The notes under the pieces were generated by a model that made no database searches, was not told the DNA's origin, and was given only the letters and a program-made list of their open reading frames with translations. A stretch of 64,000 nt of DNA, from sequence record MZ170040.1. One strand, given 5' to 3'. Origin of the DNA: Escherichia phage vB_EcoM_FJ1. This document shows, piece after piece, positions 25,433-31,022 of the stretch (positions within the stretch are counted from its first letter, which is position 1; each line of letters begins with the position of its first letter). A program made the position numbers and the translations under genes.

Positions 25433-25753
25433 TTATAGCGTAATCCATTCTCGTACTGTCTGAGTTACTACACGTTCACGGGGCTCGACTAGTTCAACGG
25501 TAGGAACTGCATAATACCAGTCAGAATGATAAGAACCTGACCGAGATTCATTTACCGCTACATGTACATTATGTTCTGGACTAAAGTAAACACACTGACG
25601 ATATTGGCATTTACCATCTTGCACCCAGTCTTCTATTTCGACAGGTTTAAGATAATCGGAAAAATCGAAATCATAGTTTTCCGAAAATGCATCATGGTCT
25701 TCAATGATTTCGCTCAGAACTGCATCAACATCTAATTTATTTTCAATAGTCAT
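25433..25753 (-). CDS. hypothetical acidic protein
   Basis: 106-aa ORF. Confidence 0.45.
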   Translation of the reverse strand: MTIENKLDVDAVLSEIIEDHDAFSENYDFDFSDYLKPVEIEDWVQDGKCQYRQCVYFSPEHNVHVAVNESRSGSYHSDWYYAVPTVELVEPRERVVTQTVREWITL

Positions 25754-26413: not shown

Positions 26414-26656
26414 TTATTCCTTAATTCCTAGTACTTGTTTAAAAGTCTCGTCGTAATCAAGACTTTGGCCCGTTTGTTCTTTATGTTTGTATATAATATC
26501 ACTTACTTCTGATAGCATATTTTTATATGAACGAGTTAAAGCAGATTTAAGCACGCTGTATCTATCAGGAAATTTACCGTGTTCATTATAATAAGCTATT
26601 GCTAATTCACGGACTGCCTTTTCAGCAGTCTCCATATATTCTTTACGCTTGGTCAT
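26414..26656 (-). CDS. hypothetical protein
   Basis: 80-aa ORF coupled to nrdC. Confidence 0.45.
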
Positions 26657-26658
26657 TT

Positions 26659-27048
26659 TTAATCCAAAATATTATTAGGCATTGGTTGAACACTCGCAAG
26701 TTCTTTAAAGAACTCAGTAGAGTCAGGCAATTTAACCATTTCCGGAGCATGCTTACTGAATTTATGTTTACATTGACGGCATTTATATTCAAGCTCTGGT
26801 TTACGCCAGTTAATCAACTGAACTTGTTCAGTACCGCATTCAGGGCAATTAGGAACGTTTTTAGAAGCTCTTTCACGTCGTTCAACCATAGCCATAATAG
26901 CATCCCATGCTGGAGGTTTAAAATCTAAATCGTCGCAGCCGTGAATCTTTCCACGCATTTCCATATCATCTTCCTCACCAGCCATAATAATTTTAATTAA
27001 ACTGGAATTACTTGAAGCTGCAATGTCTTCTAATAAACGCTTTTTCAT
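26659..27048 (-). CDS. zinc-ribbon protein
   Basis: 129 aa with CPECG...CRQC four-Cys zinc ribbon. Confidence 0.5.
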
Positions 27049-27974
27049 TTCAATACCTCAATAGCATTACGTAAACCATTTGCTTTTGCATTAAGAGCTT
27101 TTAACAATTTGGTGTGTTCTGCAATTTGGGCTTCAACTTCAATCAAACGGGCATTGAGATATTCACGTTCTTCACTCAGATTATCAATCTTTTCTACTTT
27201 AGGCTCTTTTACAACTGTCTTATATATATTAGGGTTCTTCAGTTTAATTAAAATGCGTGAACTGTATAACATTGAACCATTATCTTCGGTTTCGTCATAC
27301 ATTTCTACTACGTCCATGATTTTTAACATCATGCGGAGTTTATAAGATAACGAACGAATAGTTTTGTTGTGCTTATTAATTTCTCTAGAGTTCATGGTGC
27401 CGAGATTACGTGAGTAATAATAAGGAACCTGGATATTAATTAATACTGATGAACCACCTGGCTTGTGTGTTACTTCATCAGCAATAACCCAATCCTTAAC
27501 ATGAACTGTATTTGTACGGTCATCGCCCGCGGTAAATAGTTTGCGAGCATGCTTAAAAAGCATATTCACTTGGTCATTGAATTGACAAGCAAATTTATCA
27601 GCAAATTTAGTTTCAGGAATGGTAGATAACCAATCAGCCAAATGAGTCTTTTTAACATCGTTAACAATAGTAAATTCAACCAAATCAGTTATAGATGTCT
27701 CAGATTTAATAAAGCTCGGCTTCATAAAGTTTTTAATGTTATCGCGAGCTACAGTAGAAGATAACATACGAGAACGTTTAAACCATTGAAGCAAATTGCC
27801 CAACGAATGAGAATAAGCGTTTTGAGTATCTTTACAGATATGATTTTCCTGGCCAACATATTGAAGGAAATCACGAAGAATATTATTGATTACTGCCCTG
27901 TGTCCTATCTGATAATTACGATGTTTAGTAATAAGACTGTCAAAATAATCAATATAATGTTTACGAGTTTTCAT
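27045..27974 (-). CDS. hypothetical protein with C-terminal coiled coil (tandem family, member 1)
   Basis: 309 aa; C-terminal heptad-like segment [42 protein letters not shown]. Confidence 0.5.
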   Translation of the reverse strand: MKTRKHYIDYFDSLITKHRNYQIGHRAVINNILRDFLQYVGQENHICKDTQNAYSHSLGNLLQWFKRSRMLSSTVARDNIKNFMKPSFIKSETSITDLVEFTIVNDVKKTHLADWLSTIPETKFADKFACQFNDQVNMLFKHARKLFTAGDDRTNTVHVKDWVIADEVTHKPGGSSVLINIQVPYYYSRNLGTMNSREINKHNKTIRSLSYKLRMMLKIMDVVEMYDETEDNGSMLYSSRILIKLKNPNIYKTVVKEPKVEKIDNLSEEREYLNARLIEVEAQIAEHTKLLKALNAKANGLRNAIEVLK

Positions 27975-28026
27975 GTTCTTCTCACTTGGTTAATGATTTA
28001 TACTCCGAGCCATCCTTGGCTTTAAA

Positions 28027-29028
28027 TTACTTAATTAACTGTAAAGCTTGTTCCAGACGATCAAGACGATTAACAGATTCTTCCCAAATCCTTTTAGCCT
28101 GCTCATATTCTTTCTGCGCTTTATTAGAAATTTCTAGAACTTCTTTATAAGCTTTTTCTAGTGCAATAACTTCTGGACGAATTTCTACCGGTTCAGGTGA
28201 ATCGTCAAGACATTCCATTAGTTCCTCAAGGGTAGTTTCTTCTTTAGGAGTATTCACAATTTCATCACATTTTTGTTGGTAAATTTCTTTATCAGTAGGT
28301 GAATAAGCACATTTCACTTCACGAAGACTAATTACAATTTTATATCCTTCCCAACCGCATATATTCTTAAAAGGATAAGTATGAATATTTTCTACTGTTT
28401 CCATACAAAGTAATGCGGTCTCTAATTGACGAGTTATAGTACTAGCAATTGAGAAAAATTTATTAATATTCTTTTGGTTAGTTTCTGGTGTAAAAAATCC
28501 ATAATTCACAAAAATAGATACTTTATTTTTATCAAGTTCATATTCTTTTACGATAATCATATCAGAAGCCAAAGGATGAATTTGACGATAATCGCCATAA
28601 CATAATTTAGAAGCTGATTTTAGAATTTGTCCTTTGAAAAGTCTGAAATTACTAATCCAACGACGAGTAAAAATATTCTCAGGGTCTTCTTTATTATTAA
28701 GATGATAAGAATTAACATCACCGAACCAATTATATCCTACTACATCTTTAGTTCGTTTAATTTCTTTCCCAAAATTACCAAGAATATCCCGATTAACCAA
28801 ATATGAAAGAAGACGAGACTCTTTAAAGGTTTTCTTGATAAGATCTTTATCTACACGACTAGAAATTTTACGAATTTCATGAATAAATTTAGTAGAAGAA
28901 ACAATACTTGCATCAACACTATTGAGCCATTGATTGATAATAGAAAGAACGATATTTTGACCAAACATCGGTATAGCTTTATCATCAATAACGCTATTGA
29001 ATGATTTGATATATTCGTTACGAGTCAT
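28027..29028 (-). CDS. hypothetical protein with C-terminal coiled coil (member 2)
   Basis: ATG at 29028 preceded by GGAGG (the track start at 29079 lies inside a promoter); C-terminal ...YEQAKRIWEESVNRLDRLEQALQLIK. Confidence 0.5.
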   Translation of the reverse strand: MTRNEYIKSFNSVIDDKAIPMFGQNIVLSIINQWLNSVDASIVSSTKFIHEIRKISSRVDKDLIKKTFKESRLLSYLVNRDILGNFGKEIKRTKDVVGYNWFGDVNSYHLNNKEDPENIFTRRWISNFRLFKGQILKSASKLCYGDYRQIHPLASDMIIVKEYELDKNKVSIFVNYGFFTPETNQKNINKFFSIASTITRQLETALLCMETVENIHTYPFKNICGWEGYKIVISLREVKCAYSPTDKEIYQQKCDEIVNTPKEETTLEELMECLDDSPEPVEIRPEVIALEKAYKEVLEISNKAQKEYEQAKRIWEESVNRLDRLEQALQLIK

Positions 29029-29056
29029 ATTAATCTCCTCAGTAGAAAGTAAGAAC

Positions 29057-29086
29057 ATTATACCACATCCTTGTGGCAAAGTAAAC
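29057..29086 (-). promoter_or_regulatory. early promoter (GTTTAC, 18 nt, TATAAT)
   Basis: Minus-strand GTTTAC at 29086-29081 and TATAAT at 29062-29057. Confidence 0.6.
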
Positions 29087-30111
29087 TAGTTCAGTGCATT
29101 TAGTGCATTGTTCAGTTTAGAACGTTGCTTTGTCAGATTTTGAACCCTTGACTGAGCTTGTTTTAACACCTTTTCAGCTTCTAGCACTTCATTAGTTGCT
29201 TTAACGAGTTCATCATCTACTGCCTTAAGAGACTTCTCAATCGCATCCGCGTGCCATTTTTCAACAGGTTTAAGACTCGGATTTTCAACAGGAAGAAAAT
29301 TCACTTTATTGAATTTCCATGCATCTTTATTACCTGAACTATACATCCAAAATTTAGGATCGTTTGATAAGTAATTGGATAAATTTAAATTTAAGTTATC
29401 TTGTACTTCCTGCTTTTTCTCTTGCGGGACTTCGTCCTTTCTCAAAAATTCATATTTAAATGAAACGATCATATCAAGTTCATATGATGTTGTATCTAAC
29501 TTAAATCGTTCAAAACGAGGTAAAATCTTAGATTGAACAGCAGCAACAACATCCATATACTTAAATGCTTCTGTCAACTGTGATTTAAGGCATTCACAAA
29601 TTGAAAGAGAATTTTTTGTATTAGGTTTAAAGCTAATTCGTGCAGTTCTATTATTTTCTTTTAACGGTCTTACTTCCATCTGAAGAGTATAACCATCAAA
29701 TTTCAGGTTCTTTAAGTTAATATCAGAACCTTTTAATCGACTAGCAGTAGACAAAATTTGCTTTAATTGTTTACGGAATAGAGCAATAAATCTCCATTCA
29801 AGACGATAATGATTTGGATTGAAAAATCCAGATGATAAATTGACCTTACTTTGACCAACGCCTTGAACAAATAGAGGATTTTTATAATCAATAGTTTTAC
29901 AGAAATCGGTGAGCTGCTCACGAGCAGTCATTTGTGTAATATATCCCGCTTTACTAAAATGACGTAACCATTCACTGCTATTCATATACTTAAAGTGAAT
30001 ATCACGATTAACTTTATCAGGGTCTAAATTATTTTGGCACAAAAATGTCATAACATCACGAGTATAGCTGGCATTACGAACCATATCTTCAATTTGAGAA
30101 CGAGTTTTCAT
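29086..30111 (-). CDS. hypothetical protein with C-terminal coiled coil (member 3)
   Basis: 341 aa; C-terminal ...EAEKVLKQAQSRVQNLTKQRSKLNNALNALN. Confidence 0.5.
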   Translation of the reverse strand: MKTRSQIEDMVRNASYTRDVMTFLCQNNLDPDKVNRDIHFKYMNSSEWLRHFSKAGYITQMTAREQLTDFCKTIDYKNPLFVQGVGQSKVNLSSGFFNPNHYRLEWRFIALFRKQLKQILSTASRLKGSDINLKNLKFDGYTLQMEVRPLKENNRTARISFKPNTKNSLSICECLKSQLTEAFKYMDVVAAVQSKILPRFERFKLDTTSYELDMIVSFKYEFLRKDEVPQEKKQEVQDNLNLNLSNYLSNDPKFWMYSSGNKDAWKFNKVNFLPVENPSLKPVEKWHADAIEKSLKAVDDELVKATNEVLEAEKVLKQAQSRVQNLTKQRSKLNNALNALN

Positions 30112-30119
30112 AGTGTTCC

Positions 30120-31022
30120 TTAAGATTTAAGTAAATCAACAATTTTAATTAATTTTTCACGCTCAGATTTAGCTTTACTACTCAATCCAGATAGTCTGAA
30201 AATTTCATCGTCATACTGTTGAATAGAAATATTCAGCTCTTCAATTTGCTTATTAAAATAATCAATTTGTTCAGAATGTTTTTCGTTACTACGAACTGGT
30301 ACAGGTTTTGTAGGCAATTTAGTTGAACTGGATTCATCCGGGCAATAAATTAAAATACAATTTGAACCAATCGGACATTTAGCACCAGACACATATTCTA
30401 ATGTTCCGGCTTCTTTTAAAACTTCAAAAGCTAAACAGAGATGATGCCCCATATTAACATAATCTGTAGAGTGAGCTCTGATGTAATAATCATCTCCACG
30501 AATACTAAATTTAAAGCATTTAAGGTCTTCTGTATTATTGGTCTTAAAAATCATTTGTTTATCTAGACCTTTAGCTAATCGAGCGCCTAATGCTAATAAT
30601 CGTCGTTGATTTTCCCACAAATCCGCAATCATTTGGTCAAATGATAATTTCGGCATTAGTCGACCATAAAGGTCATATCCTTTATTATAATTGCGAAGGA
30701 TTTCACTCGCATTAATACGAGACAACGCTCCAATTTTATTAAGGGCTTTCATAATGCGATTAGATAAACTCATTCCAGATCCGTTTGTTCGCTGTAAATG
30801 TTTTTCTAATCCAAATCCAATATCAACTTTAAACTTATCTAAAATTTCTGCATGAACATCTTTATCAATAACATTCAAATCCAAAGTTGGGTTAAATCTA
30901 TGAAAAAATTTATCTGGCTCTCCACGACGAAGTACAGTCCATTCATTTAATTTTTTATTAACTAAAGATTTAATTACTGCATTGACATTATTAATTACTA
31001 CTGACATATTTTCCTCACTCAA
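30120..31022 (-). CDS. hypothetical protein with C-terminal coiled coil (member 4)
   Basis: 300 aa; C-terminal ...IQQYDDEIFRLSGLSSKAKSEREKLIKIVDLLKS. Confidence 0.5.
   Translation of the reverse strand: MSEENMSVVINNVNAVIKSLVNKKLNEWTVLRRGEPDKFFHRFNPTLDLNVIDKDVHAEILDKFKVDIGFGLEKHLQRTNGSGMSLSNRIMKALNKIGALSRINASEILRNYNKGYDLYGRLMPKLSFDQMIADLWENQRRLLALGARLAKGLDKQMIFKTNNTEDLKCFKFSIRGDDYYIRAHSTDYVNMGHHLCLAFEVLKEAGTLEYVSGAKCPIGSNCILIYCPDESSSTKLPTKPVPVRSNEKHSEQIDYFNKQIEELNISIQQYDDEIFRLSGLSSKAKSEREKLIKIVDLLKS

Follow-up and report, generated by a model that had tools for sequence, protein, structure and literature searches.

Four adjacent genes of Escherichia phage vB_EcoM_FJ1 (sequence record MZ170040.1) appear from their sequences to be diverged tandem paralogues whose products all end in a coiled coil. 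They lie on the minus strand of the 64,000-nucleotide stretch that we analysed, hereafter the window, and comparison with annotated T4 and vB_Eco_NR1 identifies them as the orthologues of T4 nrdC.3, nrdC.4, nrdC.5 and nrdC.6, the names used here. An earlier note on this DNA had described four consecutive open reading frames (ORFs) here, and these are present (Table 1); rather than each mapping to a different characterised T4 protein, all four correspond to genes annotated as hypothetical protein in T4. Each member would consist of a helical N-terminal domain, a beta-beta-alpha-beta-beta domain, a disordered, charged, proline-containing linker and a coiled coil of about 49 residues. We hold the paralogy and shared architecture, taken alone, to be very probable. 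The fuller proposal, that the four are ancient paralogues acting as coiled-coil-oligomerised defence inhibitors with fast-evolving heads, is the one towards which we lean.

By BLASTP, the only significant pair among the four proteins is nrdC.3 and nrdC.4 (26% identity over 226 amino acids (aa), expectation value (E) 8.6e-9). The proteins nrdC.3, nrdC.4 and nrdC.6 share no more than about 26% identity with nrdC.5 or among themselves, and Pfam places the four genes in three separate families (PF26897, PF23882 and PF26899). As coiled coils attract spurious matches, the last 70 residues were cut from every protein before profile searches. With hhalign, nrdC.3 and nrdC.4 match with 99% probability at full length and 98% without tails, and the tail-less comparisons give E-values of 1e-3 for nrdC.4 and nrdC.5, 5e-3 for nrdC.3 and nrdC.5 and 3e-3 for nrdC.5 and nrdC.6, compared to at least 0.12 for all of twelve reversed control sequences. 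The alignment offsets agree around the triangle of nrdC.4, nrdC.5 and nrdC.6. Pairwise and profile comparison, which the earlier note had named as a check, thus detects similarity even when the coiled coil is removed.

Iterative hidden Markov model (HMM) searches were run on a local database of ORFs no shorter than 140 aa (216 in all), drawn from the window, twelve related loci and a few family representatives, again with tails removed. Whether nrdC.3, nrdC.4 or nrdC.6 serves as the seed, the searches arrive at the same 33-34 proteins, comprising every nrdC.3, nrdC.4, nrdC.5 and nrdC.6 homologue together with related proteins from other genera, and recruit no unrelated ORF of that database (next best E at least 0.08). 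Profiles built with one family left out recover the omitted window protein at E 5e-6 (nrdC.3), 6e-6 (nrdC.4), 4e-8 (nrdC.5) and 4e-4 (nrdC.6), compared to 0.04-0.11 for the best unrelated ORFs and values no lower than 0.015 when sequences are reversed; the value for nrdC.3 comes from a tail-less profile holding neither nrdC.3 nor nrdC.4 members. In a blind check, of the 34 proteins that the head alone had recruited, 30 were seen to carry a heptad tail, compared to 4 of the 182 other ORFs. An alignment of representatives reveals a common head motif, [FL]-K-[KR]-[SA]-x-h-h-[ST]-x3-A-x3-L-x-[ND]-[FY]-G-K, and a second head helix ending in [AG]-[SA]-[RK]-L-x2-G-x2-[RK]. The tandemly duplicated family that had been suggested for these genes is therefore supported, by the BLASTP match and by tail-less profile searches that join all four. 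The duplication looks ancient, because a DNA repeat search found no recent duplication and no DNA-level repeats, and because Pfam keeps three families apart.

Every one of the four proteins ends in seven unbroken heptads (49 aa), longer than the 35-40 residues first estimated. The heptad register, counted from the C-terminus, is identical in all four, and they have a common end motif, L-x-x-A-h-x-x-L-K. Hydrophobic residues fill 86-93% of the a and d positions, values that composition-preserving shuffles (20,000 trials) seldom reach (p below 5e-5 to 2e-3; Table 1). AlphaFold2 predicts long helices here in both proteins modelled, a single one at residues 283-340 of nrdC.5 (predicted local distance difference test (pLDDT) 62-90), which runs to about position 29265 of the window, and two at 242-271 and 277-294 of nrdC.6. 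The heptad-like ending first reported for each gene stands. When the 66 window ORFs of at least 100 aa are ranked by C-terminal heptad score, nrdC.5, nrdC.3, nrdC.4, nrdC.8 and nrdC.6 take the first five places, and the clustering of heptad tails at this locus thus exceeds chance by far.

Two further tails deserve mention. The 175-aa nrdC.8 orthologue, two genes upstream of the block, also carries a heptad tail (ending ...KQRAERQNTLRKFEERLKTVLA; score 0.65, fourth of the 66 ORFs), and the superfamily profile does not pick up its N-terminal part (E 0.76-1.8 with nrdC.8 orthologues). The nrdC.6 gene of reference T4 (NC_000866, 10067-10894, 275 aa) contains a frameshift inside the coiled coil after ...KQIEEL, and the remaining tail (ISIQQYDDEIFRLSGLSSKAKSEREKLIKIVDLLKS) is intact in another frame within about 120 bases downstream; the frameshift arose either by mutation in a laboratory strain or through an error in sequencing.

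For the heads, the AlphaFold2 model of nrdC.6 (pLDDT 77, predicted template modelling score 0.65) has a helical domain at residues 3-150, strands at 165-170 and 173-178, a helix at 186-199, strands at 204-209 and 217-221, and a low-confidence linker at 227-242 leading to the tail. The model of nrdC.5 has helices at 4-125, a beta-beta-alpha-beta-beta domain at 143-218 and a disordered segment at 225-282 before the tail helix. The elements come in the same order in both, and structure prediction thus agrees with a common layout for the two of the four proteins that were modelled, one of them (nrdC.5) at a pLDDT of 49. The four proteins gave nothing significant when searched by sequence against the PDB, and PDB searches with an nrdC.6 profile and an 18-sequence tail-less superfamily profile gave no match, the latter none even at E 10, so the head seems to be without a recognisable solved relative. 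Scans of Pfam, NCBIfam and PADLOC otherwise gave sub-threshold matches (PHL, XerD N-terminal domain, Cas6b_C, BrxC and SEC10/PgrA), which we treated as noise or at most weak leads; those to BrxC and SEC10/PgrA fall in the coiled-coil or linker-tail region. Residues 30-86 of nrdC.3 resemble the N-terminal SAM-like domain of XerD-type tyrosine recombinases (NCBIfam E 1.4e-3, Pfam E 0.078), maybe by chance.

The superfamily extends to other genera of T4-like phages. A Foldseek search of BFVD with the nrdC.6 model returned uncharacterised phage proteins of 304-335 aa (E 3e-7 to 1.5e-3) from Enterobacter IME523, Pectobacterium PM2, Acinetobacter fHyAci03, Acj61 (two adjacent genes) and Acj9, Yersinia fHe-Yen9-01, Citrobacter Merlin and Klebsiella Mineola. 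Matches of about 300-340 aa from Kanagawavirus, Moonvirus and Tegunavirus and from phages of Acinetobacter, Klebsiella and Pectobacterium have E-values of 3e-7 to 3e-4. These proteins also score against the nrdC.3/4 and nrdC.5 profiles. The best match of the nrdC.5 model is the same Merlin protein, in a list that is mostly noise except for the Merlin and Melville proteins. With two models only, the Foldseek ties run to related proteins of other phages and not directly among the four. In the genomes that we fetched, all members lie in the nrdC region, all but one of them between nrdC.10 and nrdC, and all matching genes have heptad tails with the same end motif.

Presence and absence across these T4-like genomes vary by lineage, with copy numbers from one to four and a single copy in most of the genera examined. 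Kanagawavirus, Moonvirus, Klebsiella phage K65 and Lazarusvirus have a single gene. There are two in Acj61, where they are adjacent, and in fHe-Yen9-01, where they flank nrdC.10 on either side. Three are found in Gaprivervirus and Dhakavirus (nrdC.6, nrdC.5-like and nrdC.4) and in phiE142-type phages (nrdC.6-like, nrdC.5-like and nrdC.3-like), and all four in T4-type Tequatrovirus including the window. The one Aeromonas phage locus considered has no member. By tblastn in a collection of 50,697 phage records, nrdC.3-type sequences occur in 653, nrdC.4-type in 553, nrdC.5-type in 581 and nrdC.6-type in 741, compared to 1,311 for the conserved neighbour nrdC.10. An HMM of the nrdC.5 head, run exhaustively against 1.84 billion representatives, found just two full-length relatives (P0057 and P0228), the family's own representative and a few fragments, with no bridge to the other paralogues; a further match, P0231, proved to be a repeat artefact. 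The nrdC.5 family thus appears very narrow, and in everything searched the superfamily is confined to T4-like phages (Straboviridae). Phages with one or two superfamily members also have a conserved protein of about 256-263 aa without a coiled-coil tail (C-terminus, where read, ...FFKRPS...), encoded within about 1.5 kb upstream of the member and immediately upstream in most loci.

Heads and tails have evolved at different rates. In nine of ten orthologue or allele pairs the heads are 25-62% identical and the last 49 residues 36-75%, and in the tenth (the window against the phiE142-type nrdC.3) the values are 79% and 82%, so that in every pair conservation is higher in the tail. Rapidly diverging heads, conserved tails and a copy number that varies would fit a specificity module mounted on a structural module, under an arms race. 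The nrdC.3 gene falls into three allele classes (about 93-99%, 74-79% and 60-62% identity to the window protein), and that of the window is nearer to the phiE142-type allele (79%) than to T4 (60%). The other three genes, nrdC.4, nrdC.5 and nrdC.6, have 96-98% identity to T4, which suggests that nrdC.3 was replaced singly through exchange between lineages. A 299-aa protein from metagenome assemblies (P0056) joins nrdC.5 residues 145-273 in frame to nrdC.3 residues ~139-309, with its junction at a common FN..VN.L stretch. The fusion implies a natural loss of nrdC.4 and the flanking gene halves, probably via microhomology recombination; deletions of this kind are described for T4 in the text of PMC9391042.

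Function is known for one member. According to the text of Srikant, Guegler and Laub (eLife 2022, PMC9391042), a T4 deletion mutant is unable to infect ECOR17 because of dsr1, and expression of T4 nrdC.5, described there as an early gene, restored plating of the mutant on MG1655 carrying dsr1. A 2026 preprint (PMC12803255) reports that Dsr1 has as its sensor a TPR domain, found also in Avs7, and that it is triggered by the major capsid protein. The anti-defence role at which the earlier note had guessed thus has experimental backing for one member, T4 nrdC.5, which restores plating on Dsr1 cells; for nrdC.3, nrdC.4 and nrdC.6 it is what we infer from their relationship to it, and nrdC.5 being anti-Dsr1, their paralogy makes them candidate counter-defence genes. 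The neighbours gp49.2 and nrdC.1 are both reported defence inhibitors, of OLD (PMC13096335) and of Septu (bioRxiv 2025.11.20.689424) respectively, and for this reason the whole pin-nrdC.6 stretch resembles a counter-defence island. On laboratory hosts T4 tolerates loss of its nrdC.1-6 block, with growth on K-12 kept (PMC9825161).

We picture the mechanism as follows. The coiled coil would make the protein an oligomer, ancestrally a homo-oligomer since most genera examined have a single copy, and the oligomer would present several flexibly tethered heads that bind a host immune protein and so block it ahead of its trigger; both the oligomerisation and the direct binding of a target are proposed for the family by us. 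NrdC.5, made early, would oligomerise by its tail and hold the SIR2 NADase Dsr1 blocked before the late-made major capsid protein appears, the action of nrdC.5 against Dsr1 being the only experimental link in this chain. NrdC.3, NrdC.4 and NrdC.6 would then be specificity variants for other defence proteins or for other Dsr1 alleles.

The four genes could also be paralogous and yet have another basic job, in early host takeover or nucleic-acid binding as coiled-coil-dimerised DNA- or RNA-binding proteins, with the anti-Dsr1 effect indirect or a side activity. The weak XerD-like match of nrdC.3, a faint Cas6b_C match of nrdC.5 (E 0.14), the location of the four among early genes and a phenotype known for a single member all favour such a job. 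However, the domain matches are far under the curated cutoffs (18 bits compared to 279), the T4 block is deletable with growth on K-12 unharmed, the flanking genes are proven defence inhibitors, and the faster divergence of heads (in nine of the ten pairs) and the variable copy number fit an arms race better, so that we consider it unlikely.

Less likely again is a joint action of the four, in which similar tails build one hetero-oligomeric complex with different heads. The identical register and end motif, tails that are more conserved than heads in every pair, and adjacent genes on one strand are what such a complex would lead one to expect. Against this, the single copy in most genera examined argues for an ancestral homo-oligomer, three-copy lineages lack either nrdC.3 or nrdC.4, and outside the last ~10 residues there is no significant likeness between the tails of one paralogue and another (tail-only hhalign E at least 0.01). 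Additionally, plasmid-borne nrdC.5 alone rescued the T4 deletion mutant, in an account (PMC9391042) whose text does not state the extent of the evo 3 deletion. A related and slightly more doubtful idea is that the conserved tail is a shared assembly or docking module, by which the paralogues either form mixed oligomers with one another or attach to the same partner. Defence-blocking heads of several kinds would then sit on a single particle, a scaffold against immunity that is modular and combinatorial and that phages would extend by duplicating and diversifying heads. That unrelated heads each gained a coiled-coil tail independently is very improbable: the three Pfam families, the single significant BLASTP pair and the non-significant direct hhalign comparisons of nrdC.6 with nrdC.3 and nrdC.4 point that way, but the heads are linked by tail-less searches, leave-one-family-out tests and reversed controls, they have common motifs and the same order of secondary-structure elements, Foldseek joins nrdC.6 to proteins that score against the nrdC.3/4 and nrdC.5 profiles, and the members in fetched genomes sit in the same region.

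Several points weigh against the proposal of coiled-coil-oligomerised defence inhibitors. The least secure link is that of nrdC.6, recovered at E 4e-4 in a database of 216 sequences: its direct hhalign comparison with nrdC.3 or nrdC.4 is not significant, and the link relies partly on iterated profiles and on Foldseek matches of low TM-score (template modelling score; 0.4-0.5). The nrdC.5 model is poor (mean pLDDT 49, from a 10-sequence alignment) and its structural matches carry little weight. The frameshift in reference T4 nrdC.6 means that the tail is dispensable on laboratory hosts or that the sequence is wrong. A literature search found no experiment or report on nrdC.3, nrdC.4 or nrdC.6; for NrdC.5, no later mechanistic work and no published mechanism was found in the literature searched, and direct binding to Dsr1 is an assumption. 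The oligomeric state is something that we infer.

The window belongs to a Tequatrovirus, with 97-98.6% nucleotide identity to related genomes including slur03 and Lutter. The 3,978-bp stretch of the four genes has matches in 656 phage records, the best (98.6%) being slur03, slur08, slur14, vB_Eco_Geo and Lutter. It is flanked by nrdC.2, nrdC.1 and nrdC (thioredoxin) on one side and by nrdC.7-nrdC.10 on the other. Where T4 has nrdC.2, the window has a 129-aa ORF whose CPECG...CRQC is a zinc-ribbon-like CxxC pair; the counterpart of this ORF in phage NR1 is annotated Sf25_gp216-like and not NrdC.2.

Table 1. Positions of the four genes, their heptad tails and other features, in window coordinates except for the last row, which names its loci.
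Feature	Position	Strand	Evidence or remark
nrdC.3 orthologue, 309 aa; head, linker, coiled-coil tail	27045..27974	-	ORF; phrog_1435 E 2e-116
nrdC.3 seven-heptad segment	27048..27194	-	a/d hydrophobic occupancy 0.86; 46 of 20,000 shuffles reach this value
nrdC.4 orthologue, 333 aa	28027..29028	-	97.6% identity to T4 nrdC.4; phrog_1435 E 1e-168
nrdC.4 seven-heptad segment, end ...RLEQALQLIK	28030..28176	-	a/d occupancy 0.86; 32 of 20,000 shuffles
nrdC.5 orthologue, 341 aa	29086..30111	-	95.6% identity to T4 nrdC.5; between nrdC.6 and nrdC.4, syntenic with T4
nrdC.5 seven-heptad segment, end ...KLNNALNALN	29089..29235	-	a/d occupancy 0.93; 0 of 20,000 shuffles
nrdC.6 orthologue, 295 aa from ATG 31007	30120..31007	-	97% identity to T4 nrdC.6 over 259 aa; phrog_2257 E 4e-153
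nrdC.6 seven-heptad segment, end ...KLIKIVDLLKS, SGLSS kink	30123..30269	-	a/d occupancy 0.86; 4 of 20,000 shuffles
T4-early-type promoter-like site (GTTTAC-17 nt-TATAAT with TG), just upstream of nrdC.4	29057..29085	-	consensus match only, 10 of 12 positions
gp49.2 orthologue	25433-25753		window neighbour
nrdC.1 orthologue	26414-26656		window neighbour
129-aa ORF in slot of T4 nrdC.2	26659-27048	-	
nrdC.8 orthologue, 175 aa	31485-32012	-	heptad tail
~256-263 aa protein of other loci	L011 11994-12764; L012 12630-13421; L013 12101-12889; L015 12275-13063; L016 11552-12340		

As to the gene calls, nrdC.3 and nrdC.4 both match one family model, phrog_1435. PF26897 is carried by all nrdC.4 homologues and also by the natural fusion protein that contains the C-terminal half of nrdC.3. 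A GAGGAG Shine-Dalgarno sequence precedes the nrdC.4 start (ATG 29028), and the promoter-like site sits in the 57-bp gap between nrdC.5 and nrdC.4, so that nrdC.4 and nrdC.3 may have an early transcript of their own. The nrdC.5 protein matches PF23882 (DUF7235) with 404 bits compared to a cutoff of 30, over profile positions 1-307 of 307, and also phrog_2351. PF26899 is carried by all 105 nrdC.6 homologues. The nrdC.6 gene had been read as 300 aa from TTG 31022; its start is most likely ATG 31007, giving 295 aa, as GAGG lies seven bases upstream and the corresponding ATG starts the T4 and vB_Eco_NR1 homologues.

T4 is the reference phage, and still its nrdC-mobD block consists mostly of genes that carry the label hypothetical. 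Should nrdC.3, nrdC.4 and nrdC.6 be diverged copies of the anti-Dsr1 gene nrdC.5, they become three concrete counter-defence candidates in T4, and NrdC.5 gains a testable structural idea, that of a coiled-coil oligomer with tethered heads. Three Pfam families, together with related genes in many other Straboviridae, would come under one heading, and from the variable copy number and allele classes one could read off the host defences that a lineage has encountered.

The closest known system is T4 NrdC.5 itself (PF23882), of which the window nrdC.5 is the orthologue by identity, position and full-length match. The other three genes have its domain order, its tail motif and detectably homologous heads, but no PF23882 match in the Pfam scan, which leaves them outside that family, and the anti-Dsr1 activity is published for T4 nrdC.5 alone. 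A looser parallel is the anti-DSR2 protein DSAD1, with which SPbeta-like phages bind and so neutralise a defence of the SIR2-type NADase kind, as our model proposes by analogy for NrdC.5. It differs in host range and in its target, DSR2 rather than Dsr1, and though DSR2-DSAD1 complexes are in the PDB, sequence searches there with the four proteins and the two profiles found no similarity to it. The T-even anti-defence cluster round nrdC (gp49.2 and NrdC.1) lies in the same neighbourhood, consists likewise of dispensable genes and has both members present in the window; however, these proteins are small (80-106 aa), and among the window ORFs recruited by the superfamily profiles there are no homologues of them. 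Finally, PF26897, PF26899 and PHROGs 1435, 2351 and 2257 already hold the individual families, and PHROG 1435 merges nrdC.3 with nrdC.4, but they are annotated as of unknown function and kept apart, and a literature search found no paper that links the three Pfam families or describes the shared tail. What is already known is thus the genes themselves and the published function of one of them, nrdC.5; what is new is the union of three Pfam families of unknown function in one putative coiled-coil-tailed superfamily, its spread and copy-number variation over Straboviridae, and the proposal of nrdC.3, nrdC.4 and nrdC.6 as candidates for counter-defence.

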